Positions 45,948 through 60,038 of a stretch of DNA of 60,038 nucleotides are shown here, piece by piece. Source of the stretch: Candidatus Ghiorseimicrobium undicola (GTDB lineage: Bacteria; Omnitrophota; Gorgyraeia; Ghiorseimicrobiales; Ghiorseimicrobiaceae); assembly GCA_002796125.1 (NCBI GenBank), contig PCWA01000092.1:1-60038 (forward strand), written 5' to 3'. The stretch's first letter is position 1. Each line of letters starts with the position of its first letter. Under the pieces are notes generated by a model, which was not told the DNA's origin, made no database searches, and was given only the letters and a program-made list of their open reading frames with translations. Both the position numbers and the translations under genes were made by a program.

Positions 45948-45980
45948 GGATTTCTTTGCCGGTAGGTTATAACAGGCTGC

Positions 45981-46019: not shown

Positions 46020-46110
46020 GTCCTAGTCGCATCTTTTACAGAGAATACTGCTTGTAAAAAACTTCTCTTTTGATATACTATAGCTAACCGCCAAATTTGG
46101 AAAATTAAAT

Positions 46111-47094
46111 ATGGAAACTCTCTTTAAAGCCCATAAACAAATAGCCAAGAATTTCGATGAAAATGAAAGCATAGTTCTGCATCTCGGAGATACGCTTGAG
46201 TTTTTAAAAACTCTCCCTTCAGAATCTATATCCTTATCTATCAGCTCCCCGCCATATAATATCGGCAAGGTTTATGAAAAAAAGGTGGAGATTGAGGAGT
46301 ATTTGTCAGCTCAGAAGCCGGTAATAAGCGAACTCGTTAGAACATTAAAAAAAGACGGTAGCATTTGTTGGGAAATTGGCAACTATGTTGATAAAGGAGA
46401 GATTTTTCCTTTAGATATTTACTATTATGATATTTTTAAAGAATATGGGCTAAAGCTAAGAAATAGGATAATTTGGCATTTTGGGCATGGGCTTCACGCG
46501 AGCAAAAGGTTTTCAGGCAGGTATGAAACTATTCTCTGGTTTACCAAAACCGATTCCTATAAGTTTAACCTTGATAATGTAAGAATCCCGTCTAAATATC
46601 CGGGCAAACGGCATTTTAAGGGCAAGCAAAAAGGAAGGCCTTCCTGCAATCCCCTCGGAAAAAACCCCTCTGATATTTGGACTGTGATAGAAGACGATTG
46701 GGACAAGGAAATATGGAATATTCCGAATGTTAAAGCAAATCATCCTGAAAAAACTATTCATCCTTGCCAGTTTCCGATAGAGCTTGTAGAACGTTGTGTT
46801 TTAGCGTTGACGGATCAAAATGACTGGGTGTTTGATTCCTATTGCGGGGTCGGCAGCGCGTTGATTGCGGCCCTAAAGAACGATCGAAGGGCTATAGGCT
46901 GTGATAAAGAAGAGGATTATATCAAGATTACGGAAAAAAGAATAAATGATTATTATTCCGGAGCCTTAAAGACACGGCCTATTGGCAAACCTATCTTTAT
47001 GCCTACAGGTAGAGAGAAAGTTTGCCAAATTCCCAAAGAATGGAAAGAAGGATCAGGAGAAAATGAAGATAGCCGGCGTCTACTCTTTCAATAA
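46111..47094 (+). CDS. Beta-class amino-DNA methyltransferase (probably N4-mC)
   Basis: SSPPYN catalytic motif precedes HPCQFP and DSYCGVGS (SAM-binding). Confidence 0.92.
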   Translation: METLFKAHKQIAKNFDENESIVLHLGDTLEFLKTLPSESISLSISSPPYNIGKVYEKKVEIEEYLSAQKPVISELVRTLKKDGSICWEIGNYVDKGEIFPLDIYYYDIFKEYGLKLRNRIIWHFGHGLHASKRFSGRYETILWFTKTDSYKFNLDNVRIPSKYPGKRHFKGKQKGRPSCNPLGKNPSDIWTVIEDDWDKEIWNIPNVKANHPEKTIHPCQFPIELVERCVLALTDQNDWVFDSYCGVGSALIAALKNDRRAIGCDKEEDYIKITEKRINDYYSGALKTRPIGKPIFMPTGREKVCQIPKEWKEGSGENEDSRRLLFQ

Positions 47095-47629
47095 AGGCAA
47101 GGAAATCATAGAGAAAAATTATCCGGAGCTGCTTTCCGAGATCAAAACGATAATTTCTTCTATTGACGCGGGAAAGTATAAGGTTAAAAAGAGCAAAGAG
47201 AAGACGATGAAGGGCAGGCTGCTTTTTAGCCCGATTGAGTTAAACAACGCTTTCAAAACGAAGTTTAAGAAAAACAAATGGAAGACTATCAGGGTAAAGT
47301 GCGCGTATTCCAGTGAGCACTATTTAGACGGACATAAAAGCAAAGAAACCAAAGGAGCCTTTCGCGAAATGGATTTTGTAAAAGATGGGTTGGGTGTTGA
47401 GTTGCAATTCGGTAAGTATGCCTTTATGGTTTATAACGTCTGCGCTAAGATGACCATATTTAATAAGCTGAAATATATTAAATATGGGGTTGAGGTAGTC
47501 CCGATTAAAGAACTTGCAGAATCTATGTCAACCGGCGTATCCTACTTTGAGCAGTTTGTCTGGGATTTGGAACATAGAGGCGTTTCTGATATTGATATTC
47601 CCGTGCTCATATATGGAATAGGGGTATAA
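47063..47629 (+). CDS. Type II restriction endonuclease, BglII/BstYI family
   Basis: REMDFVKDGLGVELQFGK (D...ExQ active site typical of BglII); overlaps the MTase; ATG 47063 after AGGAG. Confidence 0.82.
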   Translation: MKIAGVYSFNKGKEIIEKNYPELLSEIKTIISSIDAGKYKVKKSKEKTMKGRLLFSPIELNNAFKTKFKKNKWKTIRVKCAYSSEHYLDGHKSKETKGAFREMDFVKDGLGVELQFGKYAFMVYNVCAKMTIFNKLKYIKYGVEVVPIKELAESMSTGVSYFEQFVWDLEHRGVSDIDIPVLIYGIGV

Positions 47630-47731
47630 TCTAAAATGTAGCGAGATGGTATTGCCAATTGTATTTAGTCGCTTCAAAGGGATATATGGGCGTTGGTTTA
47701 TTCTAACGCCTTTTTTGTTCAACTGATCCAA

Positions 47732-48619
47732 ATGAAGATTTATCTTAAAAGCCGTTACGTTGTATCGGGAGAGCTTGAATCAAGAATAGCGCAAGAATTA
47801 CAGTTTAGAATACCTATGCAGAATAATGGTGAGGCTATTGTTAAGATATCCCTTGATGGCAAGCAAATTGAATCTTTCTGCGAGGCCGAAATCTCCAATG
47901 ATTTATATAATATTCTAAAGACAGGAATAAAAGAGGTTGATGGCTTATCGAATAGTTTGCAGGTTGAGCTTGCAGGATTAAGATGCCCCTTTAAAGCAGC
48001 TCAAAAAGTATTTTCTCTCATTAAATATTGTTTTAATAATATTAAGTTAGATGAAGGTCTACTAGGTAATAAGGGTAATTATTGGTCCGAAGATAAATTG
48101 GATTGGAAGTATTTACCAGGAAAAATTATATTTAAATTTGATGCTTACTCAACAAGACCTTTAACAGAAGATAATGCTAGGGCTATTCAGGACTATATCG
48201 ATAGTAATTTTGAGCCATTTTTAGCATTTCGGCATTTACACAGAGCGATACGCGAACGGAGCCCCAGATATAAATGGATTGATGCTACTATAGCCGCCGA
48301 ATTAGCTATCAAAGAGTTTTTTATTAGATTAAATAAGGATATTGAACCGTGGGTCTTAGAAGTTCCTTCGCCGCCCTTAGATAAATTATATGGTAAAATC
48401 CTAGAATTTTATACGGGAGAGCGCTCTCCGAAAGTAAACGCTATTCGTGAAGGAGCGAAAATCAGAAATGAGCTTTTACATAAGCCGCAGGATAATAAGA
48501 TCGAATATCAGCGTGCTGTTGAATATGTTAAAGACGTTGAAATAGCTATTTGGCATCTAATAAAATTACTGTATAAAGATAATCGTTTTATCGAAAATAG
48601 TTATATACGCCGTATTTAA
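47732..48619 (+). CDS. Hypothetical protein with C-terminal HEPN-like RxxxxH motif (candidate defence RNase)
   Basis: Helical C-terminal domain with IRNELLH; directly downstream of the R-M pair. Confidence 0.55.
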   Translation: MKIYLKSRYVVSGELESRIAQELQFRIPMQNNGEAIVKISLDGKQIESFCEAEISNDLYNILKTGIKEVDGLSNSLQVELAGLRCPFKAAQKVFSLIKYCFNNIKLDEGLLGNKGNYWSEDKLDWKYLPGKIIFKFDAYSTRPLTEDNARAIQDYIDSNFEPFLAFRHLHRAIRERSPRYKWIDATIAAELAIKEFFIRLNKDIEPWVLEVPSPPLDKLYGKILEFYTGERSPKVNAIREGAKIRNELLHKPQDNKIEYQRAVEYVKDVEIAIWHLIKLLYKDNRFIENSYIRRI

Positions 48620-48777
48620 AAGAGGCGCGAGATGAAGCGGTAAAAAGGTTGCGTATAAGGTAATACAAAAGTAATGCAAAGGTAATGAAAGTAACGTAAA
48701 AATAATGCGATCTTTTAGAAGATAATATCCCGGTTTTAAGTTTGGCGGGTAGTGGAGATTTAATGCTAAGAAGATAG

Positions 48778-48938
48778 AGGAGTGAGAAAGAAGCAAAAGC
48801 AAGAATAAAAATTAATAAAAAACTTGAGGAATCAAGCTGGTGTTTTGAGGCTGACAAGAACGGCTTGGCCAATATCGGGCTTGAGGCTGGTGTGAAATTC
48901 ACCGAATTAGGCAATGATTTTGAAAATGCGATGATATA
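48778..48938 (+). pseudogene. N-terminal fragment of a type I restriction subunit HsdR (EcoEI/EcoAI-like)
   Basis: SEKEAKARIKINKKLEESSWCF...ANIGLEAGVK..LGNDFE, no start codon and an early stop; recognised from memory. Confidence 0.55.
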
Positions 48939-49018
48939 GAAAATAAGCTTGAGGCAAATAAGGGTACATTGTGGTAGTTTTTGGTTAATGTACGAATATT
49001 GCACGTTTAGATACTATA

Positions 49019-49198
49019 ATGAAAACAAAGAAACCGCCGCTGGAGATAGAAATCGAATATAAGCCCATGAGCGAAAAGGACTACGATATATTTATCAAGA
49101 TTCTTACTAAAATGTTTAGTAAATATATGGCAGAAAGAAAGACAAAAATAGAGAGTAATGATAAACCTGTAGATTATGTTAATCCGTTGCACTGTTAA
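49019..49198 (+). CDS. 59-aa hypothetical protein (not in the ORF track)
   Basis: MKTKKPPLEIEIEYKPMSEKDYDIFIKILTKMF...; overlaps the start of the next gene. Confidence 0.4.
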   Translation: MKTKKPPLEIEIEYKPMSEKDYDIFIKILTKMFSKYMAERKTKIESNDKPVDYVNPLHC

Positions 49199-49727
49199 GC
49201 TTTTAAAAGAATTAAATTTAGCCGCGTCTGAACTTACCGATAGCGTGCCTTCTGAATTGAAACTAGGAGAGTGGTTCGCGAACCTCTTTTTCATAGAGCG
49301 TAAAAAATGCCTTATTTTCACCAATACTCGGACGCTGTTTACGTTTATATCATTCGCGGTCAACCGAACGCAGATAAAGAACATCGGAGAGCTTTTCCGC
49401 GCGGGATTGGGCAAGGCTTTATTAGATGAGGATTTTGACGGTGCCGTGATTCAGCGGTTAGTTGACGAGTGTCACGATATGCAATTTTCCAAAACAAATA
49501 ATAAGAGCGTTCTCGGTGCCATGAATGACCATGTAAAGACTGCAAAGTGGATGGTCTGGCGGGATGGCGGATTGGGAAAATGTAATTTCCCCCATCTTAT
49601 AAAAAAACTTAACCGCACGCCATTTTCAACGCGGAGATTTGCCTACGCGATTGAGGAGCTGGGTAAGGTTTTAGGTATCGAGATAGACCCGAGACTAAAC
49701 TTTAAACCAAAATTCGTGTATGGTTAG
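49176..49727 (+). CDS. DUF6933-like protein (related to pRiA4b ORF3 N-terminal domain)
   Basis: MLIRCTVKLL...LGEWFANLF..ERKKC, and KTNNKSVLGAMND...LNRTP. Confidence 0.65.
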   Translation: MLIRCTVKLLKELNLAASELTDSVPSELKLGEWFANLFFIERKKCLIFTNTRTLFTFISFAVNRTQIKNIGELFRAGLGKALLDEDFDGAVIQRLVDECHDMQFSKTNNKSVLGAMNDHVKTAKWMVWRDGGLGKCNFPHLIKKLNRTPFSTRRFAYAIEELGKVLGIEIDPRLNFKPKFVYG

Positions 49728-49768
49728 GCATTTCGCGGATAAAAGATTTAATTCATTTTAATTTCGCC

Positions 49769-49797
49769 TTGACAACTACTGATTAATAAAGAATAAT
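49769..49797 (+). promoter_or_regulatory. Probable promoter of the HTH-REC/KS-ACP-TE-HK operon
   Basis: TTGACA-17-AATAAT. Confidence 0.55.
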
Positions 49798-49821
49798 AAG
49801 ATATCTTGGGAGGTATCTTTG

Positions 49822-49998
49822 GTGAAGTCGGAAGTTTTAACCTTTGATGAGACAAAGAAATATTTAAAAATAAGCGACTCTACGCTTTACCGGCTTGTGC
49901 AGTCTAAAAGAATACCCGCGGCAAAAGTCGGCCGCTCCTGGCGTTTTCGGAAAGAACGCATTGACCAATGGCTCAAAGAGCAGGAGAAAGTTAAATAG
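49822..49998 (+). CDS. Excisionase-family HTH_17 protein (58 aa; not in the ORF track)
   Basis: GTG after GGGAGG: KSEVLTFDETKKYLKISDSTLYRLVQSKRIPAAKVGRSWRFRKERIDQWLKEQEKVK*. Confidence 0.85.
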   Translation: MKSEVLTFDETKKYLKISDSTLYRLVQSKRIPAAKVGRSWRFRKERIDQWLKEQEKVK

Positions 49999-50008
49999 GG
50001 ATATCGGC

Positions 50009-51613
50009 ATGCCAAAGAATATATTAGTTATTGATGATGATCCCCAAGTATTAAATAGCCTTGAGAAGTTATTTAAAAAGGAAAATTATACAGTCGTTAA
50101 GGCTTCAAGTGGTAAGGAAGCTTTTGAAAAAGTTGAGTTTCAATGTTTTGATTTGGTTATTGCGGATATTAGGATGCCGGGTATTGATGGCGTTGAAACG
50201 GCAAAGAAAATAAAGCAGATACAGAAAGAAAAAGGCAGGGGAGATATCCCCGTTTTGTTTATAACCGGCTATGCGGATTTAGCCGCCAATGCCGAAGCAG
50301 AGCAGTTAGGCGAAGTGGTTTTAAAACCTTTTGATGTTGAAAATTTACTAAATCGAGTAAAGGCGCAAAGTGGTAAAAGAAGGGTTGTTATAACAGGTTT
50401 AGGCGTAGTTGCTCCTAATGGTATCGGCAAAGATGAGTTTTGGGAAGCTAATATAAATGGTAAATCAGGGGTAGATAGGATTCTATCTTTTGATGTATCG
50501 CAGTTAAATTCTAAGATTGCCGCTCAAGTAAAAGATTTTGATCCGCTAAAATACATGCCTAAATTATTGGCAAAGAAAGCAGATCGTTTTACTCAATTCG
50601 GCATTGCCGCTTCTAAGCTAGCATTGGAAGATAGCGGCTTAGATTTGGAAAAAGAAGATAGGGGGCACATTGGCGTATCTATCGGAACCGGATTAGGGGG
50701 GATGTTATATCATGAAGAAGTTGTTTTGCAAATGCATAAAGATAAGTTTAGTAAAGTAGATCCGTTAAGCGTTCCTAAGATTACTTCGAACGCCGCATCG
50801 AGTAATGCAGCGATTCTTTTTTCCTTGAGTGGGCCTAATGCTACTATGTCTACCGCATGCGCGGCTGGAGCCCATGGTATAGGCTATGCTTATGATTTAA
50901 TCAAATTAAATAGAGCAGATATAATGTTTGCCGGTGGAGCCGAGGCCCCGATAACACCTTTTACTTTATGTACTTTTGATGCTCTCAGGGTATTATCTAC
51001 GCGCAATGACTCTCCCCATGAAGCCAGCCGTCCCTTTGATAAGGAGAGAGATGGTTTTGTAATGGGAGAGGGGGCAGGCGTAGTGATATTGGAAGAATTA
51101 GAGCATGCCAAAAAGAGAAATGCGCATATATATGCAGAAATTATTGGGTATAGTTTAACTTCAGGTGCGCATCATATGGTTATACCTGCTAGCGAAGGTA
51201 AAGATATCTCCCGAACCATATCCTTAGCCTTAAAAGACGCAAATATTGAGCCGCAAAAAATAGATTATATTAACGCACACGGAACATCCACGCAAGCTAA
51301 TGATAGGGCGGAAACGCGTGCAATAAAAGAAGTGTTTGGGAATTATGCCTATAAAGTTCCTATTTCTTCAACAAAGTCTATGATTGGTCATAGTCTTGGA
51401 GCGTCTGGAGCGATTGGTGTGATTGTCTGTCTTTTGACGATAGAAAACAATATTATCCCACCCACGATAAATTATAAATACAAAGATCCGGAATGTGATC
51501 TTGATTATGTGCCTAATGAGGCAAGAAAAGCAAAAGTGGATTTTGCCCTGACTAATGCTTTTGGCTTTGGTAATAATAATATTTCAATTGTCATAAAAAG
51601 ATTAGGAGAGTAA
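50009..51613 (+). CDS. Receiver (REC) domain fused to a FabF-type beta-ketoacyl-ACP synthase
   Basis: REC: LVIDDD, IADIRMP, ITG, KPF; KS: RRVVITGLG, TACAAG (Cys), AHGTST, KSMIGHSLGA, NAFGFG; true start ATG 50009. Confidence 0.9.
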   Translation: MPKNILVIDDDPQVLNSLEKLFKKENYTVVKASSGKEAFEKVEFQCFDLVIADIRMPGIDGVETAKKIKQIQKEKGRGDIPVLFITGYADLAANAEAEQLGEVVLKPFDVENLLNRVKAQSGKRRVVITGLGVVAPNGIGKDEFWEANINGKSGVDRILSFDVSQLNSKIAAQVKDFDPLKYMPKLLAKKADRFTQFGIAASKLALEDSGLDLEKEDRGHIGVSIGTGLGGMLYHEEVVLQMHKDKFSKVDPLSVPKITSNAASSNAAILFSLSGPNATMSTACAAGAHGIGYAYDLIKLNRADIMFAGGAEAPITPFTLCTFDALRVLSTRNDSPHEASRPFDKERDGFVMGEGAGVVILEELEHAKKRNAHIYAEIIGYSLTSGAHHMVIPASEGKDISRTISLALKDANIEPQKIDYINAHGTSTQANDRAETRAIKEVFGNYAYKVPISSTKSMIGHSLGASGAIGVIVCLLTIENNIIPPTINYKYKDPECDLDYVPNEARKAKVDFALTNAFGFGNNNISIVIKRLGE

Positions 51614-51616
51614 TTT

Positions 51617-51874
51617 ATGAATAAGAAAAATAGAACCGTTGTCGAAGGTAAAATAAGCGAGATTATTTCAGAGAGGTTGGATATCAAGAAAGAAGATATA
51701 AAGCCGGAGTCTAAGCTAAGGGAGGATTTAGGAATTGATTCTTTTGGTTTGGTAGAGTTATCGTTTGAGGTAAAGGATAAGTTTGGGCTAGAGCTAAAGG
51801 ATCAGGATTTTAAATCAATAACAACGGTTAACGATGTGGTGGATTATATTTTTAATAATATGAAAGGGGATTAA
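51617..51874 (+). CDS. Acyl carrier protein
   Basis: LREDLGIDSFGLVEL (phosphopantetheine Ser) and ITTVNDVVDYI. Confidence 0.92.
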   Translation: MNKKNRTVVEGKISEIISERLDIKKEDIKPESKLREDLGIDSFGLVELSFEVKDKFGLELKDQDFKSITTVNDVVDYIFNNMKGD

Positions 51875-51876
51875 TT

Positions 51877-52293
51877 ATGCCGGAGAACGAATTTATTTTC
51901 GAAAAGACAATTTACCTGGGGAATACCAATATGTTTGGTAATGTTTATTTTGCTAGGTATTTTGATTGGCAGGGTGAAGCGAGAGAAGCCTTTTTTTATA
52001 AAACCGTACCAGAAAGTTTAGCCCTTTTTAAAAGCGGCATAAAATTTGTAACCATAGAAGCGTATATTAAATATAACAAAGAAACAGTCGTATTTGATGA
52101 TGTCATGATTAAAGTGCAGGCGGCAAATTTTAAAATCACTACATTCGAGTTAATATTTACGTATCTAAATAAAAAAACTGGTGAGCTTATTGCCACAGGT
52201 AAGCAAAAATTAGGATTTGTTGATTCTAATAATAAGGTTATCCCCGTACCCGAGCAACTTAAAATTGCTTGGGATAAGTTTATAGGAAAATGA
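51877..52293 (+). CDS. Hot-dog-fold thioesterase (4HBT/YbgC superfamily, enediyne-TE-like motif)
   Basis: NTNMFGNVYFARYFDWQGEARE and LIATGKQ. Confidence 0.85.
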   Translation: MPENEFIFEKTIYLGNTNMFGNVYFARYFDWQGEAREAFFYKTVPESLALFKSGIKFVTIEAYIKYNKETVVFDDVMIKVQAANFKITTFELIFTYLNKKTGELIATGKQKLGFVDSNNKVIPVPEQLKIAWDKFIGK

Positions 52294-54416
52294 GTATTTA
52301 TTCTGTCTCGCCGTTAATTTGTTCTCTGCTGGCTCTCTCTTTCGGATTCTTCGTTTACTTCCATAATAGAAAATCGCAGGTAAATATTAGTTTTGGATTA
52401 TTATGCCTAAGTACTTTTTGGTGGCAATTTAGTTGGTTTATTTTATTTAATATTCAGGATAGGTCTTTGGTTTCATGCCTAACCAAAATCGGTTACACGG
52501 GTATTATATGGATACCTTTTACTTTCTATCATTTTGTTATTTATTGGTTAGGCCTGCATAAGGAAAAAATATTACTTTATCTATCGTATATCTTAGGTTT
52601 TGTTTTTCTTGTCATACTTTGGAGCTCGGATCTATTTCTAAAAGGATTCTATGAATATCGCTGGGGTTATTATCCAAAGGCGGGTCTTCTCCACCCGCTA
52701 TATTTGGCTATTTTATCCATAGTCGCGGCAAGAGTTTTTTGGGTTCTAGGATTGTCATTAAAAACAAGAAATTTATCTGCTGTTCAAAGGAATCAATTTA
52801 AATATACCATTACAAGTTTTGCCATTTATACATTAGCGTCCATCGATTTTATTATAAATTATGGTATTGAGTTTTATCCATTTGGATTTAGCTTTGTAAT
52901 ACTTTCTCTTTTCTTAGTTGCTTATGCTATCTTTAAATATCGCTTAATGGACATTAATGTTGTTTTTGCCCGTGCGAGCATATTTATAATAGTGTACGCG
53001 CTGGTTCTTGGTATCCCTTTTAGCTTAGTTAGCTGGGGAAGACTTTGGCTTGTGAATGTTTTCGGTCAGTATTGGTTTCTCGGGCCGATGATTATTCTTC
53101 TTGGTTCGGCCACCGCTGGTCCTTTCATATATCAATATCTAAGAAAAAGAGCCGAAGACCTTATTCTTAAAGACCAACGTCGCTACCAGGGTATCTTGCA
53201 TAATCTCTCTAAGTCTATGATACGCATAAAAGACTTGGACGCGCTCATCGCAACTGTTACTTTGACAATGGTAGATATAGTTAAGGTGGACTTTGCCGCG
53301 ATATACCTGAAGGAAGATGAATACAAAAGTTACCAGCTTAAGCGATATTACCCTAAAGAAGCAAAAGGGAGATTCCAAGAATTTATTCCTTTTGAGCACT
53401 CTCTTGCTAAAATACTCTTTCTTAAAAAAAGTCCTATTTCGGGAGGAGATATTGGCCCTCAAGATAAGGTTGATTTAGACTCCGGTATTATCGTGCCTTA
53501 TCTCGTAGAAGAGAGTTTGTTGGGCTTTTTAGTTTTAGGAGCAAAGTCCAAGGGGCAAATGTATACTACTGATGATATCTTAATCCTGGAGACTATTTCT
53601 TACTCAACAAGCCTTGCCATTGAAAACTGCCGTTTCTGGAAAGAAATTGAAACCAAACAGCGCAAGGCCCGCCTGCAGGAAATGGATGCCTATTCTTACT
53701 CGCTTGCTCATGAGATAGATAACCCTGTGCAGGTGGTTATAGGTCAAACCGACCTTTTAAAGAAATACCTCCTGAAAGATATCCCCGAAGAAAGAAGAAA
53801 AGACACGTTAGAGGCCTATGAATATATCTTAGAGGCGGCCAAGCGTGTCTCCGGCATGGTTAAGGCTATTCGCGACTTTGGCTCCCCTGCTACCGGAGAA
53901 TTAAAGCCATTAAAACTTAACGACGTGGTGGAGAGTTTCTCAAAGCTTTATCTGCCGCAGTTTAAGACTAACACTGTCTATTTCGAAAAGCATCTTCCCG
54001 ATGGGGATATTTGTATAAAAGGCGAAAAGGCCGAACTGATGCAGGTTCTAGTAATCTTAGCCAATAATTCCATTCACGCCCTCTTGGATACCAAAGAAAA
54101 GAAAATCACCCTAAAAGCAGAGCCGCTTAATCAGGATAAGGTAAGAATAATATTCTCTGATAACGGCTACGGCATAAAGAAAGAAGACCTTGAGATTATC
54201 TTTAAGCCCTTTGTCACCACTAAGGCATCTACCGAAGGCACCGGCATGGGCCTTGCCAACGCGATAAAGATAATAGAGAAGCATAAAGGCAGGATTTGGG
54301 CGGAGAGTGAAGGTAAGGGTAAAGGCGCTAGTTTCTATATAGAGTTGCCTGTTGCGCAAGACACCAAAGAGGAAGACTTAGCTTGCGAGACAAACAAAAC
54401 AAAGAGATTATTTTAG
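52290..54416 (+). CDS. Sensor histidine kinase: N-terminal 7TM-type domain, GAF, HisKA, HATPase
   Basis: About 9 TM helices with YAIFKYRLMDI; GAF with LGAK..G..YT..D; AHEIDNP H-box; N-box, DNGYGI, FVTTK and GTGMGL. Confidence 0.92.
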   Translation: MSIYSVSPLICSLLALSFGFFVYFHNRKSQVNISFGLLCLSTFWWQFSWFILFNIQDRSLVSCLTKIGYTGIIWIPFTFYHFVIYWLGLHKEKILLYLSYILGFVFLVILWSSDLFLKGFYEYRWGYYPKAGLLHPLYLAILSIVAARVFWVLGLSLKTRNLSAVQRNQFKYTITSFAIYTLASIDFIINYGIEFYPFGFSFVILSLFLVAYAIFKYRLMDINVVFARASIFIIVYALVLGIPFSLVSWGRLWLVNVFGQYWFLGPMIILLGSATAGPFIYQYLRKRAEDLILKDQRRYQGILHNLSKSMIRIKDLDALIATVTLTMVDIVKVDFAAIYLKEDEYKSYQLKRYYPKEAKGRFQEFIPFEHSLAKILFLKKSPISGGDIGPQDKVDLDSGIIVPYLVEESLLGFLVLGAKSKGQMYTTDDILILETISYSTSLAIENCRFWKEIETKQRKARLQEMDAYSYSLAHEIDNPVQVVIGQTDLLKKYLLKDIPEERRKDTLEAYEYILEAAKRVSGMVKAIRDFGSPATGELKPLKLNDVVESFSKLYLPQFKTNTVYFEKHLPDGDICIKGEKAELMQVLVILANNSIHALLDTKEKKITLKAEPLNQDKVRIIFSDNGYGIKKEDLEIIFKPFVTTKASTEGTGMGLANAIKIIEKHKGRIWAESEGKGKGASFYIELPVAQDTKEEDLACETNKTKRLF

Positions 54417-54431
54417 CCGGAGGTAGATAAA

Positions 54432-54821
54432 ATGCCAGAGACTAAACCCATAAAACTTTTAGTTGTTGATGATGAAGAAGGGATAGTGCATTTTACTAAG
54501 AAAATCTATGAGCATAAAGGTTTTATTGCCTTTGGCGCGACTGACGGGGTTACCGCGGTAGAGATCTTTAAAAAAGAGAGGCCGCAAATTTCGCTTATAG
54601 ACGTGCATATGCCTTATTCGCCCATTGACGGCATTGAAACCCTGCGCCAGATAAAAGAGATAGACAAAAACGCCGTTTGTATAATGGTAACTCGCATTAC
54701 CGAACAAGATAAAGTGGACGCGGCGCGTTCTGCCGGCGCCTTTGCTTATCTTCTAAAGCCGCTAACCGCCGAAGATATAGACAATGTAATTAGTGAAGCA
54801 AGAGAGAAGCTGGGGTTCTAA
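54432..54821 (+). CDS. Single-domain response regulator
   Basis: LVVDDE, LIDVHMP, MVT and LKP. Confidence 0.92.
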   Translation: MPETKPIKLLVVDDEEGIVHFTKKIYEHKGFIAFGATDGVTAVEIFKKERPQISLIDVHMPYSPIDGIETLRQIKEIDKNAVCIMVTRITEQDKVDAARSAGAFAYLLKPLTAEDIDNVISEAREKLGF

Positions 54822-55319
54822 ATGGCTAATCCTCTACAAAACGAAAAAGAACTGTTCGAACAAATAAAAACCGAAAATATCACCATGCCCCCGGTCATAT
54901 GGAATTTTATCTATACTTACATCGGAGACGACGTTACCGCGATAAACCTCATCTGTCAGTATTACTTAGATAAAAGCGAGCCAATGCCGGTGGCAGAGGC
55001 AAAAAGAATAGAGACTTACTCAAGCAATGCCGGAGATGTCATCAAGAGGCTTACCGTAAAAGGCGAAGAAAACCGCCACTTTCCGGACTTTGAGAAAAAC
55101 ATGCCGCTTCATCCGCTAATAATAGAGATGCTCACTCATTATATAGGCAACGATACGCAAGTAATTAACCTAATCGTAGGCGTTCATATCGAGACCGGGG
55201 ACGATTATCCGCTCTCCAAGCAGGAAATTGCCAATGTGTTAAGCCATACCAGTTCTTTAAAGGAATTTATGGAGAAGCTAAGAGAGGCAACTTATAAGGG
55301 CGAAAGGATCAAGCAATGA
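54822..55319 (+). CDS. Two-repeat helical protein, possibly a DHp-like phosphotransfer protein
   Basis: Repeats MPPVIWNFIYTYIGDDVTAINLI and LHPLIIEMLTHYIGNDTQVINLI. Confidence 0.55.
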   Translation: MANPLQNEKELFEQIKTENITMPPVIWNFIYTYIGDDVTAINLICQYYLDKSEPMPVAEAKRIETYSSNAGDVIKRLTVKGEENRHFPDFEKNMPLHPLIIEMLTHYIGNDTQVINLIVGVHIETGDDYPLSKQEIANVLSHTSSLKEFMEKLREATYKGERIKQ

Positions 55320-56062
55320 TAAAGATTTTAGCCGTAGATGATGAGCCGGGAATATGCAATGTCTTAAAGAGGACTTTTGAACCTACAGGTTTTACTGTTT
55401 TAACCGCCGTCAACGGCAAAGACGCCCTTTCTCTGGTAAATAAGGAAAAACCCAAGATTGTATTCTTAGACGTTAAAATGCTGGGGATGTCTGGATTTGA
55501 GGTATTAAAGGAAATCAAGCTCATAGACAAGAATATCAAAGTAATTATGATTACGGTAATGGATGATGAGGCGACGAAAGAAGAGGCAAGGCGTTTAGGC
55601 GCGGACGACTTTGTTATAAAGCCGTTTGTATCCAGCCAATTGGAAGAAATAGTTACGCGCGAGATAGGCGAATTGACTAAGCCGAAGATATTAATTGTAG
55701 ATGATGAGCCGAATATAGTCGAGACCTTTGCCGATTATCTTTCGCGGAACGTTAACTGTGACGTAGAGTTGGCTTATAGCGGTAAAGACGCTTTGGAAAA
55801 GCTCAAAAGCGGCGCTTTTGACGTAGCGCTTTTGGATATTATGATGCCCGGGTTATCTGGTATAGATGTAATAAAGGAGGCGCAGAAATTCAGCCCGCAG
55901 ACTAAAATTCTGGCAATCTCCGGCTATGACAGCTTAGACATAGCAGATAAAGCGCTTAAGGCAGGAGCCGCGGATTTCCTGCATAAGCCCGTACCTCCCA
56001 AGGCGCTTACGTATAAGATAAAGCAGATTCTTGGCGAGATGGGAAAATATTCGCCGAAATAG
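55316..56062 (+). CDS. Tandem double-receiver response regulator (REC-REC)
   Basis: AVDDE..LDVKM..KPF and IVDDE..LDIMMP..KPV; no output domain. Confidence 0.92.
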   Translation: MIKILAVDDEPGICNVLKRTFEPTGFTVLTAVNGKDALSLVNKEKPKIVFLDVKMLGMSGFEVLKEIKLIDKNIKVIMITVMDDEATKEEARRLGADDFVIKPFVSSQLEEIVTREIGELTKPKILIVDDEPNIVETFADYLSRNVNCDVELAYSGKDALEKLKSGAFDVALLDIMMPGLSGIDVIKEAQKFSPQTKILAISGYDSLDIADKALKAGAADFLHKPVPPKALTYKIKQILGEMGKYSPK

Positions 56063-56065
56063 TAA

Positions 56066-56644
56066 TTAAATATGTTTCGGGTTTTGGATAATTATGCAGG
56101 CGGTTTTTTGGCTGGTGTTATTTTCGAAATGATGCGGCAGAGTGCTTTCAAACGCAAGGGTTTCGTCTTTGGCGATTTCATGCTTTTCCTCTCCAACTAC
56201 GCAGGTAACCTTTCCCTTTAAGACATAAACCCACTTTTTAAAACTTCCTAATTCTGGTGGATCCTGTTCAAGCTTAGTTTTTCCGCCCGGTGTAAGCATG
56301 AGCCTTAAACCTAAAAATGGCTGTTTATCGCTGGTTAATATCTGCGCTTGAGCCTTTTCTGAATGGACATATTGGGCAATTTTATCGCGCTTTCTGATTA
56401 CTTCAACTAAAGAAAACTTTTCTTCTTCCGTGCCTTCCTTAACTTCCTTTAAGGAAACACCCAGCCCAATACATATTTGCGAGAGGGAGGCAATGCGCGG
56501 ATCTCTTAATCCCTTTTCAATACGGTAAAGAGTATTGTAGCGTATAGCCTTCTTGCCGAATATACCTATTAATCTTTGCTCTAATTCGGTAAGAGATAAG
56601 CCCTTTTCTTTACGGATTTGTCGTATCTTTTCACCAAGCGTCAT
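56066..56644 (-). CDS. XRE-family HTH + cupin transcriptional regulator
   Basis: LGEKIRQIRKEKGLSL...LYRIEKGLRDP; cupin YVLKGK...FESTLPHHFEN. Confidence 0.9.
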   Translation of the reverse strand: MTLGEKIRQIRKEKGLSLTELEQRLIGIFGKKAIRYNTLYRIEKGLRDPRIASLSQICIGLGVSLKEVKEGTEEEKFSLVEVIRKRDKIAQYVHSEKAQAQILTSDKQPFLGLRLMLTPGGKTKLEQDPPELGSFKKWVYVLKGKVTCVVGEEKHEIAKDETLAFESTLPHHFENNTSQKTACIIIQNPKHI

Positions 56645-56660
56645 TTCTCACCTCATTAAA

Positions 56661-56689
56661 ATTCTATCCTAAAATACTGTTCTTGTCAA
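56661..56689 (-). promoter_or_regulatory. Promoter of the XRE-cupin gene
   Basis: Minus-strand TTGACA (56684-89)-17-TAGAAT (56661-66). Confidence 0.7.
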
Positions 56690-56830
56690 GAAATATTTCT
56701 ACCGATAGTATGGATAAAACAAAAATTTGGTTGTAATATTAAGCATAGCGAATAGTTAAATATCATAACTATTTTATTCCCATAGTGTTATGCTATAAGA
56801 TATTATTCTACCAATATTTTTGATATACCC

Positions 56831-56859
56831 TTGACATCGGTAGAAATGTATGCTATAAT
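56831..56859 (+). promoter_or_regulatory. Consensus sigma70 promoter overlapped by an operator-like motif
   Basis: TTGACA-17-TATAAT with TG extension; contains ATCGGTAGAAAT, the inverse of ATTTCTACCGAT at 56695-56706. Confidence 0.8.
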
Positions 56860-56889
56860 TATGCCATAAGGTTAAGAAAGGATATTGAA

Positions 56890-57264
56890 ATGGTAGAACA
56901 GAAAATAAAGATAATCGTGGTAGATGATGAGGCATCAGTAAGAGACGTAATCGGCTCTTATTTTACAGTGAAGGGTTTCGAAGTATTCACCGCGGAATCC
57001 GGAGAAAAAGCCCTGCCAATTATCATAGAGAAAAAGCCGGAGATAATGCTTCTGGATTTAAACCTGATCGGAATGACCGGTTTAGAACTGCTTAAATTAG
57101 TGCGTGAGTTTAATAAAACCATTAAAACCATAATGATTACTGGATCTGATATAAGTTTTAAAGATGATCCGCGGGTCCAGCAATTAAATATCACCGACTT
57201 TATCCAAAAGCCGGTAACTGTTTCAAAGCTTAAAGAGGCGGTAAAGAAAGCGCTTGAGCCGTAA
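56890..57264 (+). CDS. Single-domain response regulator
   Basis: VVDDE, LLDLNL, ITG and QKP. Confidence 0.9.
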   Translation: MVEQKIKIIVVDDEASVRDVIGSYFTVKGFEVFTAESGEKALPIIIEKKPEIMLLDLNLIGMTGLELLKLVREFNKTIKTIMITGSDISFKDDPRVQQLNITDFIQKPVTVSKLKEAVKKALEP

Positions 57265-57313
57265 AGCATAACACCCACCAGCCATGGATAATTCCAGCTG
57301 GAATTTGAGGGTA

Positions 57314-57341
57314 GGCAGGCTGCCTTAACGGGCGGCCTGCC
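57314..57341. terminator. GC-rich hairpin after the REC gene
   Basis: GGCAGGCTGCC-TTAACG-GGCGGCCTGCC. Confidence 0.5.
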
Positions 57342-57596
57342 AATTAAAAAGGATAAGTGATGGAATATATCGGTAACTGCCTAATCGTTTTGGTAAAATT
57401 TTTGCACCAAGATAAGATTTTAGATTTTTCCAGTGATGATGCTATCGGAGATAATATACCCCATGTCTTTCTAAGTTAATATAGGGCCGTCTTCTTCGCA
57501 GCCGTTACAAATAATTATTTAAAAGAAAGTAGTTTTTGCTATAATATAGGTTAACAACTTAATCAAGCCGCTTTAGCGGCTGTTAGTGGTTCCTAG

Positions 57597-57649
57597 AACC
57601 CACATTGGAACTCCTTTTTAGGAGTGCTCTGGTGTGGGTTTTTTGTTTT
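57597..57649 (+). terminator. Long hairpin with T tail ahead of ORF 57670
   Basis: AACCCACATT...ACTCCT-TTTT-AGGAGT...GGTGTGGGTT followed by TTTT. Confidence 0.55.
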
Positions 57650-57669
57650 CTATCCCTTGGGAGAATTAG

Positions 57670-58104
57670 ATGACTGAAGGAAAAGTAATTTATCAGGAAA
57701 AATGTGTTATTGAGGCCAAAAATAACGAAGGCAAGCTTTATAGCCGTGAAATCTCTTTTACTGTCGGGGAATTATCCCGTAAAGAGGTTAGCGGGAAAAA
57801 GATTATTGCTCTAGAAACAGAATTTAAGAACGGCCTAAAAATTGAGAAAGAAACCTTGGCTGTTTCTGATCTAAAGTATGTACGTGATTATTTCCTAAAG
57901 AAGCTTACTGCCGCGATTGATTTAGTCCATCCGGAGAAAAGAGTTAAAATTACCTTTCCGCAGGGCAATAAATATTTGAAGATGCGCCGCGCTTATTGCC
58001 AGAACTGCCATAAACGTATCAAAGAATTTTACGGCTTCTATGAAGGCAGGGTAGAAAAGTGCCCGCATTGCGCAAGGCCTACCGTTTTAAAACGAACCCA
58101 ATAA
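57670..58104 (+). CDS. Hypothetical protein with C-terminal zinc ribbon
   Basis: CQNC...CPHC; RBS GGGAG. Confidence 0.7.
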   Translation: MTEGKVIYQEKCVIEAKNNEGKLYSREISFTVGELSRKEVSGKKIIALETEFKNGLKIEKETLAVSDLKYVRDYFLKKLTAAIDLVHPEKRVKITFPQGNKYLKMRRAYCQNCHKRIKEFYGFYEGRVEKCPHCARPTVLKRTQ

Positions 58105-58113
58105 AATTAACTG

Positions 58114-58293
58114 ATGGCTGAAAGATTAGAAATAACTTTTGACGAAAAAGAGATTATCGAAGGCTGGCGTATGATAAAAAGGTACCGCAAAGGCCATTTG
58201 CAGGTAACTTTAAGGTCAGACGGCACGCAATACTATCTCGAAATGACCCCGGCTAAAGAAGGCCGGGTAATAAACGACAAAATAAATTCTTAA
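58114..58293 (+). CDS. 59-aa hypothetical protein (not in the ORF track)
   Basis: MAERLEITFDEKEIIEGWRMIKRYRKGHLQVTLRSDG...INS*, 9 nt after the previous stop. Confidence 0.55.
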   Translation: MAERLEITFDEKEIIEGWRMIKRYRKGHLQVTLRSDGTQYYLEMTPAKEGRVINDKINS

Positions 58294-58302
58294 AGAAAAT
58301 TC

Positions 58303-58331
58303 TTGACAGGATTTAATCTTTAAGGTAATCT
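58303..58331 (+). promoter_or_regulatory. Promoter upstream of the replication gene
   Basis: TTGACA-17-TAATCT. Confidence 0.55.
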
Positions 58332-58395
58332 TGTTTTTAACAATTTGATTATTTAAGCAGTCGCTGTCACTCGGTCTAATAGATCAGAGAAAAAC

Positions 58396-58438
58396 AGGGC
58401 TGGTTTTCCGATTCGTTTCGGAGAGCCAGCCCTTTTTT
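58396..58438 (+). terminator. Terminator/attenuator between the promoter and the replication gene
   Basis: AGGGCTGGTTTTCCGA...TCGGAGAGCCAGCCCT followed by a T run. Confidence 0.75.
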
Positions 58439-58453
58439 ATTTTCTTATGTCCA

Positions 58454-58861
58454 ATGAAATATGCCTCGCCGCAGCTTGAAGATGGTTATACAAGGATTGC
58501 TAATGAGCTGTTAGAGGCAATTATAATCTATCCTTTTCGCGCGGTTGAATTAAAAATTGTGCTTTTTATCATCAGAAAAACCTACGGCTGGAAAAAGAAA
58601 ACGGAAATTATCAGTTACGGAGCGATTGCCAGAGAGCTAAAAACCGATATCCGTTACGTAAAAAGACTAATGAATAAACTCGTTTCTGACAGGGTTATTT
58701 TTAAAGTCAAGATAGGCAGGCAGAATCTTATCGGCTTAAACAAAAACTATACAGCTTGGATGTTGTGGCTTTGCTCATCGGAAAGCAAACCACCGCCCTC
58801 TGGCTTGTGGAAAACCGACAATGCCGGTGGCGGGCAGTCCACTGGGGTAGTGGTTAGCTGA
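58454..58861 (+). CDS. Lambda O-type replication initiator, N-terminal domain only
   Basis: SPQLEDGYTRIANELLEAI, IIRKTYGWKKK and GLNKNY. Confidence 0.85.
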   Translation: MKYASPQLEDGYTRIANELLEAIIIYPFRAVELKIVLFIIRKTYGWKKKTEIISYGAIARELKTDIRYVKRLMNKLVSDRVIFKVKIGRQNLIGLNKNYTAWMLWLCSSESKPPPSGLWKTDNAGGGQSTGVVVS

Positions 58862-58912
58862 CCACTATGATAGTGGCGCAGCGGCCACCAAAAGTAGTGG
58901 TTTGCAGGCCAC
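58827..58912. repeat. Four GTGG-N8-CCAC palindromic iteron-like repeats (putative origin)
   Basis: Start at 58827, 58850, 58873 and 58897 (periods 23, 23, 24); followed by an A-rich tract. Confidence 0.75.
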
Positions 58913-59005
58913 CACATATAAAGAAAGAAAGAAAATTAAAAATAGTAGTAAAGAAAGGCCGTTAATTCTGTTGATAAAAAACTGTTTTTAAATTAATTAA
59001 AAATT

Positions 59006-59908
59006 ATGCAGAGAAAAAAACGCGAAATCTCTGAAACAATCTTAGTCGGCCGAGGCGTAGAGCTTGAGAAGCTCAAAGAGAATATTAAGAATAAAAAACA
59101 CACTTCTCTAACCGGAGATATCGGTACCGGCAAAACCCATCTTTTAAAGTATGCGGTCAAAGACATGAAAAAAGTTATTTACGTAGAGCGTATTCACCCT
59201 TTAAAAACAGCAGTTTTAGAAATTGCCTTTTGCCTGCATAAGCAGGGAAAATTAGCCATAGAGGGAGTGCACGCCGAATACCTGGAATGGAGGGATCTCA
59301 AAAGAAAGGTTACTCGCCTTCCCATAGCTGAGCTCCTTAGCTGTATCTTAGATGGCCTATTCAATCAGAACTATATCTTAGTTTTGGACCATCTGGAAGG
59401 CCTTACTCCTTCTATGGCTTTTACAATATCCTGTTTGATGGATAAATGCCTGCTTTTAGGCGCGACTAACGATTTAAAGAAAGCGGGACATCTTTCTAAA
59501 ATCTGGTGGAGGTTTGAACATATAGAAATTAAGAACTTAGATAAAGAAGACGCCAAGGTTTTGCTCTGGCTTTACGCGGATAAAGAAAGAATTAAAGATG
59601 AAGCGATGTTTGAAAATAAAGTATTAACTCACTCTTGCGGTAATCCTCTCGCCATCGTTGAGATGGCGCGGCGCACCGGCCCGGAGAAATTCGACGATCC
59701 GCAGAAAATCCGAGACCTAAGGCATGATGCCGGAGTAAGGTATTTTGACCTTTCACCCTGTTTATTATTTATCGGGGCGATTATTGTGGCAGTACGATTT
59801 ATCTCTTTAGGCTTAAATGATACGGATGGCTATATCTTAGCCGGTTCATTCGGAGCGTTCTTTATATTTTTGAGATTTTTTATCTATAAGTCCATGCGAG
59901 AGGCTTAA
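59006..59908 (+). CDS. P-loop (AAA+-like) ATPase with C-terminal TM hairpin
   Basis: LVGRGVEL, Walker A GDIGTGKT, Walker B LVLDHLE, GNP and two C-terminal hydrophobic helices. Confidence 0.8.
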   Translation: MQRKKREISETILVGRGVELEKLKENIKNKKHTSLTGDIGTGKTHLLKYAVKDMKKVIYVERIHPLKTAVLEIAFCLHKQGKLAIEGVHAEYLEWRDLKRKVTRLPIAELLSCILDGLFNQNYILVLDHLEGLTPSMAFTISCLMDKCLLLGATNDLKKAGHLSKIWWRFEHIEIKNLDKEDAKVLLWLYADKERIKDEAMFENKVLTHSCGNPLAIVEMARRTGPEKFDDPQKIRDLRHDAGVRYFDLSPCLLFIGAIIVAVRFISLGLNDTDGYILAGSFGAFFIFLRFFIYKSMREA

Positions 59909-59965: not shown

Positions 59966-60038
59966 ATGCTGGTAATCGGAGATGATTTAAAAAAGAAAAA
60001 GGTTATTCAGATTGATGCCGCGCGTTCCCGGGCAATTC
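59966..60038 (+). CDS. Partial ORF running off the window, possibly a HerA/DUF87-type ATPase
   Basis: ATG after AAGGA: MLVIGDDLKKKKVIQIDAARSRAI..., resembling the strand that precedes Walker A in HerA-like ATPases. Confidence 0.35.
   Translation, partial: MLVIGDDLKKKKVIQIDAARSRAI

Follow-up and report, generated by a model that had tools for sequence, protein, structure and literature searches.

Here we analyse a run of ten genes on a 60,038-nt stretch of DNA (the window) from Candidatus Ghiorseimicrobium undicola, in which a ketosynthase (KS) fused to a receiver (REC) domain is encoded together with an acyl carrier protein (ACP), a thioesterase (TE), a seven-transmembrane (7TM) sensor histidine kinase, and further receivers. 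We read this run, with confidence only a little above even, as a phosphorelay-switched accessory module for an acyl product, carried as cargo of an island at a tRNA-Ala gene. The evidence points to phosphorylation as a likely switch for acyl-chain synthesis, rather than to an island run by a lipid signal of its own making: by its fused receiver, the synthase is marked out as something that signalling acts on, and not necessarily as the source of a signal. Judged from its sequence, the new element would be a response regulator with a ketosynthase as enzymatic output, set within a modular 7TM-kinase phosphorelay. The window is the entire contig C38 of a metagenome-assembled genome (G000; 1.83 Mb, 115 contigs, 94% complete); its DNA is present in public groundwater metagenome runs, among which no RNA run was listed for positions 43100-53099, and named relatives of its proteins are labelled 'Candidatus Omnitrophota'. 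The genes of the run, with the source of each assignment, are:

49819-49998, plus strand: HTH_17 DNA-binding protein, first gene of the operon (Pfam)
50009-51613, plus strand: REC-FabF (P0003), 534 aa, a KAS II ketosynthase behind a receiver (Pfam, NCBIfam)
51617-51874, plus strand: ACP, with the serine of the DS motif present (Pfam, NCBIfam, sequence)
51877-52293, plus strand: 4HBT_2 hot-dog thioesterase of the CalE7/DynE7 ACP-polyene type (Pfam, PDB sequence search)
52290-54416, plus strand: HisKA_7TM-GAF-HisKA-HATPase sensor histidine kinase (P0002) (Pfam)
54432-54821, plus strand: REC1, a single receiver domain (Pfam)
54822-55319, plus strand: UNK165 (P0001), 165 aa, an internally duplicated four-helix bundle (AlphaFold2 (AF2) model)
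55316-56062, plus strand: REC-REC, tandem receivers (Pfam)
56066-56644, minus strand: XRE-HTH and cupin regulator (XRE-cupin), convergent on the operon (Pfam)
56890-57264, plus strand: REC2, a single receiver domain (Pfam)

Domain calls for these ten proteins were made with Pfam and NCBIfam scans, and they bear out the gene content proposed by a sequence-only reading of this DNA, i.e., all ten open reading frames (ORFs) exist and the domains it assigned hold. The tight packing that it described also follows from the coordinates: from HTH_17 through XRE-cupin, successive spacings are 10, 3, 2, -4, 15, 0, -4, and 3 nt, that is, gaps of at most 15 nt or overlaps. The true start of REC-FabF is the ATG at 50009, the program-listed ORF having begun at a TTG at 49895. 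The acceptor aspartate is kept in all five receiver domains of the run, as read in the sequences, and that of REC1 (Asp57) is invariant in 6/6 orthologues. The KS comes with an ACP of its own and with a CalE7-like thioesterase of the ACP type; the kinase, five intact receivers, and the bundle protein are co-transcribed or adjacent.

The REC-FabF protein scored 555.4 bits against the fabF model TIGR03150 (equivalog cut-off 493.75) and 87.9 bits against PF00072 (Response_reg). Relatives were sought, by clusters, among 5.8 billion proteins: REC and both KS domains occurred together in 45 of the best 120 clusters listed (~534 aa, 54–92% identity to the window protein), and PilZ occurred with KS in ten others. 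Across an alignment of 45 REC-FabF sequences, receiver residues D9, D10, D11, D53, T86, and K106 are invariant, as are C284 and H461 of the KS, while H424 is ≥90% conserved; C284, H424, and H461 make up the Cys-His-His triad of the KS. In the AF2 model of the protein (pLDDT 82.5), the REC helix at residues 110–121 runs into the KS strand at 126–135 across a linker of ~5 residues. These data show that response regulators whose output domain is a complete FabF-type ketosynthase make up a conserved family. Our literature search found no paper describing a REC-FabF fusion, and the NCBI name of one relative (P0037) is only 'beta-ketoacyl-ACP synthase II'. The PilZ-FabF fusions (P0058, P0060, P0064, P0068, P0070, P0071, P0074, P0085, P0086, and P0105) are ~570 aa long and 60–64% identical to the window KS; members are labelled Elusimicrobiota or Aminicenantes at NCBI, some of them with shortened gene calls, and these fusions imply a cyclic di-GMP (c-di-GMP) input to the same accessory KS clade. 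A methyltransferase-KS fusion of 731 aa (P0089) was also seen.

REC-FabF is rare among species representatives: of 401 genomes sampled from the phylum, 2 gave full-length matches, and of 401 sampled from the class, 3 gave matches over REC and the KS N-terminus, one of them split by a stop codon. Among five genomes of the window's order only G000 has REC-FabF, and the cassette was not found in the other four (4/4). A scan of metagenome contigs with the 174-aa N-terminal part recovered at least three REC-KS loci (L116, L117, and L118) among the 80 matches listed. A scan of genome contigs with the REC-KS alignment picked up generic KS motifs, the 80 loci listed being ordinary FabF with none covering REC. 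A search of viral contigs with exact 8-mers, a weak test, yielded no REC-KS relative, and 0 of 108 matching phage records covered ≥80% of REC-KS. Among plasmid records, 35 of 3829 reached this coverage, those listed being KS-only matches in chromosome-sized records.

The window KS is distinct from the core fatty-acid machinery of the same genome. G000 encodes a housekeeping plsX-fabH-fabD-fabG-acpP-fabF operon on contig C62, the FabF of which scores 654 bits and is 48% identical to the window KS. In a quick FastTree phylogeny of 38 hand-chosen rows (13 REC-KS, 4 PilZ-KS, 11 plain KS, and others), all 13 REC-KS rows fell inside a 29-row clade (support 99) that also holds PilZ-KS, methyltransferase-KS, and many plain KS, and that leaves out the housekeeping FabF, a KS pair on contig C42, and the second KS genes of L117 and L203. 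We rejected the possibility that the window KS is the housekeeping FabF, since the fab operon sits on C62 and the KS belongs to a separate clade. The KS, ACP, and TE thus form an accessory unit for extending and releasing an acyl chain, separate from the C62 operon, as the sequence-only reading had proposed. Acyltransferase, ketoreductase, dehydratase, and enoyl reductase are missing from the cassette and could be supplied by housekeeping type II fatty-acid synthesis (FAS II), so that their absence alone does not fix the product. The KS pair on C42 (L115 5528-9495) belongs to a second accessory lipid cluster, in which two tandem KS genes are followed by a B12-binding radical SAM protein, with an ACP nearby; this radical SAM protein has weak HpnJ, HpnR, and 'lipid biosynthesis B12/rSAM' matches, all under cut-off.

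For the thioesterase, a PDB sequence search returned CalE7 (E 1.2e-15), the 'ACP-polyene thioesterase' 4i4j (3.3e-15), and DynE7 (3.4e-13). Its residues N18, Y28, and R36 align with the identical N19, Y29, and R37 of CalE7, and no acidic residue occupies the position of the YbgC-type aspartate. A catalytic role of these Asn, Tyr, and Arg residues in such thioesterases was reportedly described by Kotaka et al. in 2009. The assignment to the CalE7 type favours a product set free from the dedicated ACP as an acid. CalE7 itself frees an ACP-tethered polyketide by hydrolysis (PMC3107222). The acid freed by the window enzyme may be a reduced chain, or else a beta-keto acid, from which decarboxylation would yield a methyl ketone. 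None of the ten run proteins matches the RpfF, CqsA/LqsA, or PhcB families in Pfam or NCBIfam.

To place the kinase relative to the KS, we compared five informative REC-KS loci with neighbourhoods, the window included. A kinase adjoins REC-KS, or a stop-split pair of REC and KS, in four of the five (window, L117, L203, and L018); it is of the 7TM type in the window, L117, and L203, and L018 shows only a C-terminal kinase fragment. An ACP lies beside REC-KS in 2/5 and a TE in 1/5 of these loci. The synteny of REC-KS, ACP, TE, and 7TM kinase that the sequence-only reading had put forward as a system was seen complete only in the window, and it is the KS-kinase adjacency that recurs. In L117, the order is REC-KS, ACP, PEMT/ICMT methyltransferase, KS, 7TM kinase, and REC. 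Genes for IS110-family and IS200-like (Y1) transposases stand at 235-2081 of this locus, ~2 kb upstream of the REC-KS cassette, and are a second hint that REC-KS cassettes occupy mobile contexts.

These comparisons bear on a reading in which the KS-ACP-TE genes and the signalling genes are mere neighbours on a mosaic island. The enzyme slot 5' of the kinase varies by locus, the TE was seen only in the window, and one locus (L116) has REC-KS alone, all of which such a reading would accommodate. Set against it, however, are the fusion of REC to KS with invariant phospho-acceptor residues, the gaps of at most 15 nt or overlaps all the way from HTH_17 to REC-REC, the KS-kinase adjacency in most informative loci, and the existence of UNK165-ACP fusions, and we consider chance adjacency highly improbable.

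The association of 7TM kinases with lipid enzymes extends beyond the REC-KS loci. All four HisKA_7TM-like kinases of G000 adjoin lipid enzymes, the partners being KS, ACP, and TE; a FabK-like NMO and an aldehyde dehydrogenase; and PlsC, a polyketide-cyclase/dehydrogenase, and methyltransferases. One of these cassettes (C10) consists of a GAF kinase, HTH_17, REC, the FabK-like NMO, the aldehyde dehydrogenase, and a 7TM-GAF kinase, and another (C57) of HTH_17, PlsC, the polyketide-cyclase/dehydrogenase, a 7TM-GAF kinase, REC, a PilZ-methyltransferase, two further RECs, a methyltransferase, and a 7TM kinase. These paralogous cassettes adjoin AcrB and lipid enzymes, not mobile-element genes. Other genomes show further combinations. 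In G471 the order runs from a short-chain dehydrogenase/reductase (SDR) through PlsC, a cyclase/dehydrogenase, and a 7TM kinase to REC and KS parted by a stop, and then on through another KS, a methyltransferase, and a nitroreductase to a second 7TM kinase; in G295 a fatty-acyl-reductase-like (NAD_binding_4) protein and a PEMT-KS fusion stand with a 7TM kinase and REC-REC; in G201 a REC-PilZ-methyltransferase stands with a 7TM kinase; and G155 has a CrtI-like oxidoreductase and an ACP-FabZ fusion, followed by a 7TM kinase, REC, and UNK165. Fusion proteins observed at individual loci comprise a PEMT/ICMT-KS protein of 617 aa (L205 4276-6129, minus strand), a REC-PilZ-methyltransferase of 587 aa (L204 48-1811), and an ACP-FabZ protein of 228 aa (L228 14268-14954, minus strand), for which the best PDB relatives are 8ayd and 7qv0.

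Such a pattern could also reflect membrane homeostasis, in a manner like DesK but post-translational, with the 7TM kinase reading the bilayer, the relay tuning the KS, and the product altering acyl chains, with no signal molecule involved. The recurrence of 7TM-GAF kinases by PlsC, PEMT/ICMT methyltransferases (once fused to KS), NAD_binding_4, FabK-like, and ACP-FabZ proteins speaks for this possibility. However, a CalE7-type thioesterase frees its product from ACP, the window cassette has no acyltransferase for phospholipid, the cassette is dispensable cargo that was missing from the 4/4 same-order genomes, and two papers mentioning HisKA_7TM do not state what cue is sensed. We therefore regard membrane homeostasis as unlikely, although it is the alternative to which we give most weight.

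The HTH_17 gene that opens the operon at 49819 has its closest paralogues (42–54% identity) at the head of cassettes on C10, C20, and C57, that of C20 being fused to REC. In total, G000 has 12 HTH_17 matches, 9 of them above cut-off. Because HTH_17 genes head both lipid/kinase cassettes and a pilus run, we take HTH_17 here to be a common local regulator. The pilus run in question (33279-42792; PilM/N, PilO, secretin, PilB-like ATPase, PilC-like protein, and four prepilins) resembles a type IV pilus or type II secretion system (T2SS), and an HTH_17 gene at 33075-33242 lies directly 5' of it. The HTH_17 at 49819 had been taken for the excisionase (Xis) of a mobile element; this was rejected, since its closest paralogues lead kinase/lipid cassettes and the integrase-linked HTH_17 is another gene, on contig C103. 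On C20 (L112), the HTH_17-REC fusion is followed downstream by an SpvB-domain protein (3943-4851) and by an ORF of >1740 aa from 6781, open at the locus end (12000).

We next consider the signalling half of the run in other genomes. The UNK165 family is present in 16 of 401 class genomes. Around UNK165, the module was compared in seven larger loci and in a short contig (1.7 kb) from a genome of the same family; for several neighbours in L228-L233, annotation came only from tblastn against our own protein panel or from PDB sequence search. The order REC1, UNK165, REC-REC, convergent XRE-cupin, REC2 is the same in L234, L229, and L233, and is rearranged in L232 and L230. In L230, the kinase is preceded by a 435-aa protein without an assignment. 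In L234, identities to the window proteins are 53% (REC1), 32% (UNK165), 58% (REC-REC), 68% (XRE-cupin), and 36% (REC2), with a kinase C-terminus in front, and in L228 they are 43% for the 7TM kinase, 69% for REC, and 43% for UNK165. The presence of the signalling half in the same order in other genomes indicates that the arrangement is not due to chance and, overall, shows that these genes are a conserved unit in other Omnitrophota.

XRE-cupin is adjacent to the module in five of these loci (L229, L230, L232, L233, and L234). None of the seven other module loci contains a homologue of the window TE, zinc-ribbon, RepO-like, or AAA proteins, or of the integrase on C103. XRE-cupin and REC2 hence travel with the module in genomes without island genes, and are part of the module and not, as had been suggested, of the element's control region. 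In the family f22, the module lies between tRNA-Phe and tRNA-Thr in two genera (L232 and L233), and in a third (L229) it comes straight after tRNA-Phe, the contig stopping before the far side; this shared setting looks like vertical inheritance. The module is thus older and wider than the island. A separate observation concerns the 1729-nt contig C50 of G356 (L207; same family, different genus), on which UNK165 is 60% identical to that of the window at the amino acid level and REC-REC 91% (87% at the nucleotide level), compared with 72–76% nucleotide identity for a shared pilus gene; recent transfer of the module, strong constraint, and mis-binning are all possible.

UNK165, encoded between REC1 and REC-REC, has no Pfam or NCBIfam match, including none to Hpt or Spo0B in Pfam. 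Its relatives form 87 representative clusters at E ≤ 0.001; out of ten scanned, eight had some signalling-domain fusion, five of these being PAS-GGDEF-HD-GYP fusions, and fusions to REC-REC (P0153) and to ACP (P0124) also occur. In the ESM Atlas, UNK165 found only 'hypothetical protein' clusters of ~86–89 aa, one of them with HisKA in 10% of members. The AF2 model (pLDDT 90.7) has four long helices arranged as two similar hairpins. In an exhaustive VIA comparison, it superposed on CheA P1 structures (1tqg top) with Z of 11.5, 10.8, and 10.0 and rmsd of 2.2–2.5 Å over ~105 residues. The most conserved motif is H-Y-I/V-G-N-D, in which N110 is kept in 30/32 and D111 in 29/32 sequences, and its candidate histidine lies on the third long helix of the duplicated bundle. 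Based on the CheA P1 superposition, the place between REC1 and REC-REC, and the UNK165-REC-REC fusion, our best guess is that UNK165 is an HPt-like shuttle, i.e., a candidate phosphotransfer protein.

Taken together, these features suggest the following mechanism for a phosphorelay-switched accessory module. The membrane kinase would answer a membrane-borne or hydrophobic cue and hand its phosphate to REC1, from which UNK165, in an HPt-like role, may carry it on to REC-REC and/or the receiver of REC-FabF. Once phosphorylated, this receiver, ~5 residues from KS strand beta1, would switch the condensing activity of the KS dimer. The KS would in turn take an acyl primer from housekeeping FAS II and lengthen it with malonate carried by the dedicated ACP, itself presumably loaded by housekeeping FabD, and the thioesterase would free the acid, either in its beta-keto form or after reduction by housekeeping enzymes. 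HTH_17 and XRE-cupin would set transcription of the module.

The genomic setting of the run was read from the window and from contig C103, which carries an intact tRNA-Ala(CGC) at 4581-4654 (ARAGORN); ARAGORN found no tRNA in the window. Island features on the window, from left to right and leaving out the run itself, are:

43126-43166, plus strand: attL, 3 nt plus positions 1-38 of tRNA-Ala(CGC), a 41-nt perfect direct repeat of C103:4578-4618
43287-43309, plus strand: 23-nt repeat equal to C103:4486-4508, inside the 3' end of the integrase gene (exact-match search)
43339-43869, plus strand: PLD-like (PLDc_2) protein, first island gene (Pfam 112 bits, phrog_12711)
46111-47094, plus strand: N6_N4 DNA methylase of a restriction-modification (R-M) pair (family search)
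46982-47629, plus strand: BglII-like endonuclease of the R-M pair (family search; listed ORF start)
49176-49727, plus strand: DUF6933 protein (family search)
57670-58104, plus strand: weakly zinc-ribbon-like protein (ORF list, family search)
58114-58293, plus strand: 59-aa ORF (ORF list)
58454-58861, plus strand: protein with RepO-like N-terminal domain (PF04492 84 bits, phrog_277)
59006-59908, plus strand: weakly AAA-like protein (family search)
59966-60038, plus strand: 5' part of an ORF that runs off the contig (ORF list)

The 23-nt repeat, found on either side of the att core, may serve as an arm-type site. The BglII-like endonuclease probably starts later than 46982, since the listed ORFs of the R-M pair overlap by ~110 nt, and the ORF at 59966 may be the N-terminus of a HerA/DUF87-like ATPase whose C-terminal part opens C103. 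Island genes on C103 are this ATPase, OEP-like and YdjM-like genes, an Xis-like HTH_17 (3162-3293), and, beside the tRNA-Ala, a tyrosine integrase (3376-4557; PF00589, 130 bits); C38 has no integrase. Same-family genomes share the pilus genes to ~42.8 kb and then diverge. In two of them, G422 and G360, the locus is unoccupied, with pilin genes, tRNA-Ala(CGC), and an AMMECR1-containing gene in flanks that are syntenic to C103 from ~4750, and none of the window genes from 42880 to 59908 occurs there. Given the repeat and these unoccupied relatives, 43167 to the window end together with C103:1-4577 would constitute an insertion of at least 21.5 kb. The mobile tRNA element foreseen in the sequence-only reading is thus borne out by the 41-nt tRNA-Ala repeat, the integrase beside an intact tRNA, and the absence of the insert from two relatives. 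We rejected a phage-borne origin of the cassette, as no structural phage genes were seen in the window or C103.

In Logan contigs from four groundwater runs, the cassette is 99–100% identical in run X1 and in runs of other samples, and all contigs break at the tRNA repeat, which hides any empty site or circular form. One X1 contig extends 4713 nt beyond the window end, approximately the distance to the C103 tRNA repeat, which would fit a join of the two contigs. Just outside the island, the tRNA-Ala 5' end is copied once more, over 15 nt, at 42970-42984, and the sequence between the pilin genes and attL (42860-43100) is GC-rich and hairpin-rich. Rfam returned nothing for 42600-43500 other than a chance miRNA match below threshold, and a 124-aa minus-strand ORF at 42880-43254 is probably not a gene.

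Candidate regulatory sites around the run are:

49769-49797, plus strand: promoter-like site 5' of the cassette, TTGACA-17 nt-AATAAT, 11/12 (consensus match only)
56689-56661, minus strand: promoter-like site 5' of XRE-cupin, 11/12 (consensus match)
56831-56859, plus strand: promoter-like site, 12/12, with extended -10 TG (consensus match)
58396-58433, plus strand: strong terminator-like hairpin with a 16-bp stem (9 GC pairs) and a T-run, 3' of the REC2 unit and 5' of the RepO-like gene

The three promoter-like sites are the best sigma-70-like matches within 49400-58600 and fall in two intergenic spaces, and they include the two promoters (49769 and 56831) named in the sequence-only reading; promoter-like sites overall showed no excess over this interval (28, vs 25.1 ± 4.6 by chance). 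That reading also had the second promoter drive REC2 and then the element's replication genes. A RepO-like gene does lie downstream, but the proposal that the REC2 promoter drives it is not supported, as the hairpin stands between them. The RepO-like gene is likewise not conserved with the module, and a coupling of the two found no support. On our reading, the life-cycle genes of the island (Xis-like HTH_17 and integrase on C103; RepO-like, AAA, and HerA-like ATPase genes) are separate from the signalling circuit.

In two related proposals, the product is itself a signal. In the first, the run is a self-contained acyl-signal circuit borne on mobile islands, in which a free beta-keto or polyenoic acid, or a methyl ketone, is sensed by the kinase or XRE-cupin and feeds back through the fused receiver. 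If true, this would be a lipid counterpart of peptide or acyl-homoserine lactone (AHL) communication, with a synthase autoregulated post-translationally and not transcriptionally; we think it distinctly unlikely. The second is the model of the sequence-only reading, in which the island makes a diffusible fatty-acid or beta-keto signal, the kinase and/or the cupin sense it, the fused REC provides feedback, and the circuit gates excision, replication, or transfer. The cassette does lie within a tRNA-Ala island with Int, Xis, a RepO-like gene, and ATPases, and a thioesterase of the ACP-product-releasing type makes a free acid plausible. In addition, 7TM and cupin domains could bind hydrophobic ligands, and systems of the diffusible signal factor (DSF) and CAI-1 types are built as pairs of synthase and sensor-kinase genes. 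However, the signalling genes, including XRE-cupin and REC2, are kept in five other loci without island genes, the paralogous cassettes of G000 keep company with AcrB and lipid enzymes instead of mobile-element genes, and the HTH_17 linked to the integrase is a different gene from that heading the operon. Ahead of the RepO-like gene there is a strong terminator-like hairpin, the cassette has no exporter, and REC-KS was not recovered from viral contigs with exact 8-mers or, at ≥80% coverage, from phage records. Structurally, most of what this model starts from is correct; its functional proposal gained no support from the analyses made. We consider gating of the island by its own lipid signal slightly more doubtful than the acyl-signal circuit in general.

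A role in anti-phage defence was also weighed, with the run as a defence system or as part of a defence island and the acyl product or phosphorelay serving as effector or sensor. The island does include a BglII-type R-M pair, a PLD-like protein, and a HerA/DUF87-like ATPase, and HTH_17 reached 63 bits against the MADS MAD1 model, below its 80-bit cut-off. Yet the module occurs outside islands, adjoining lipid genes, and the operon contains no nuclease, NTPase, or other typical effector, so that a defence function appears very unlikely.

Several observations count against a phosphorelay-switched module carried as island cargo. REC-KS rows are not monophyletic in the 38-row tree and are mixed with plain KS, meaning that fusions were gained or lost repeatedly or that some gene calls are truncated; some plain KS entries are probably short calls of fused genes, given that a 410-aa member shares a 90% cluster with PilZ-KS proteins of 570 aa. 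L116 has REC-KS with long flanks and no ACP, TE, or kinase nearby. For UNK165, the Z of 11.5 with CheA P1 is within the range that helical bundles reach by chance, Foldseek against the PDB gave no match at E ≤ 0.001, and His106 is not invariant (26/32 sequences). Contigs C38 and C103 are joined here on the grounds of synteny and the repeat, and the assembly leaves them separate. Finally, the cassette sits in a mobile island beside replication-type genes, and XRE-cupin is a regulator of a kind found in mobile elements, so that a link to the behaviour of the element is possible.

Known systems share parts of this design. Galperin's censuses are said to note REC fused to metabolic enzymes. As in CheB, PleD/REC-GGDEF, and RpfG/REC-HD-GYP, an intact N-terminal receiver is attached to an enzyme, with a kinase encoded alongside; unlike in these, the output is a complete FabF-type KS with its own ACP and thioesterase. 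According to one published account (PMC5847659), bacterial REC domains occur joined to standard metabolic enzymes. The window KS resembles FabF/KAS II in exceeding the TIGR03150 cut-off and in its Cys-His-His triad, but it lies outside the fab operon and belongs to an accessory clade often fused to REC, PilZ, or methyltransferase. The cassette TE is like CalE7, DynE7, and 4i4j in sequence and in its Asn/Tyr/Arg positions, although unlike CalE7 and DynE7 it has no iterative type I PKSE nearby, its partners being a discrete type II KS and ACP. The order of kinase, single REC, small helical bundle, and further RECs recalls the Spo0F/Spo0B/Spo0A, RpfC, and CheA P1-CheY relays, whereas UNK165 differs from HPt and Spo0B proteins in having no Hpt or Spo0B Pfam match and a candidate histidine kept in 26/32 sequences. 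The Rpf/DSF, CqsA/CqsS, LqsA/LqsS, and PhcB/PhcS loci similarly place the synthase of an acyl product beside a polytopic membrane histidine kinase and receivers. In contrast to these, the window has no RpfF crotonase, CqsA-type PLP enzyme, or PhcB methyltransferase, and the receiver is fused to the synthase. The island itself is like other tRNA-integrated islands in having an integrase and Xis-like HTH_17 by an intact tRNA, a direct repeat at the far end, and R-M cargo. In tRNA-integrated elements, the repeated tRNA segment is usually the 3' part, while here it is the 5' half (positions 1-38), and the sequence of this island is divided between two contigs.

In type II fatty-acid and polyketide synthesis, control of the condensing enzymes normally lies with transcription, acyl-ACP feedback, or small-molecule inhibitors. 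The REC-FabF family implies direct phospho-switching of carbon-chain elongation, which would be a new class of two-component output, and the sister PilZ-KS forms would add switching by c-di-GMP. As a small and transferable switch, REC-FabF would also be of use in engineering lipid or oleochemical pathways. UNK165 represents an unnamed four-helix-bundle family, found alone or fused to REC-REC, PAS-GGDEF-HD-GYP, or ACP, and as such is a candidate new phosphotransfer or adaptor domain. The recurring link between HisKA_7TM kinases and ACP-dependent lipid enzymes provides a lead on the cue that these kinases sense. For the organism, on our reading, the finding would mean that an uncultured phylum includes a phosphorelay-ketosynthase module carried as cargo of a tRNA-Ala island.

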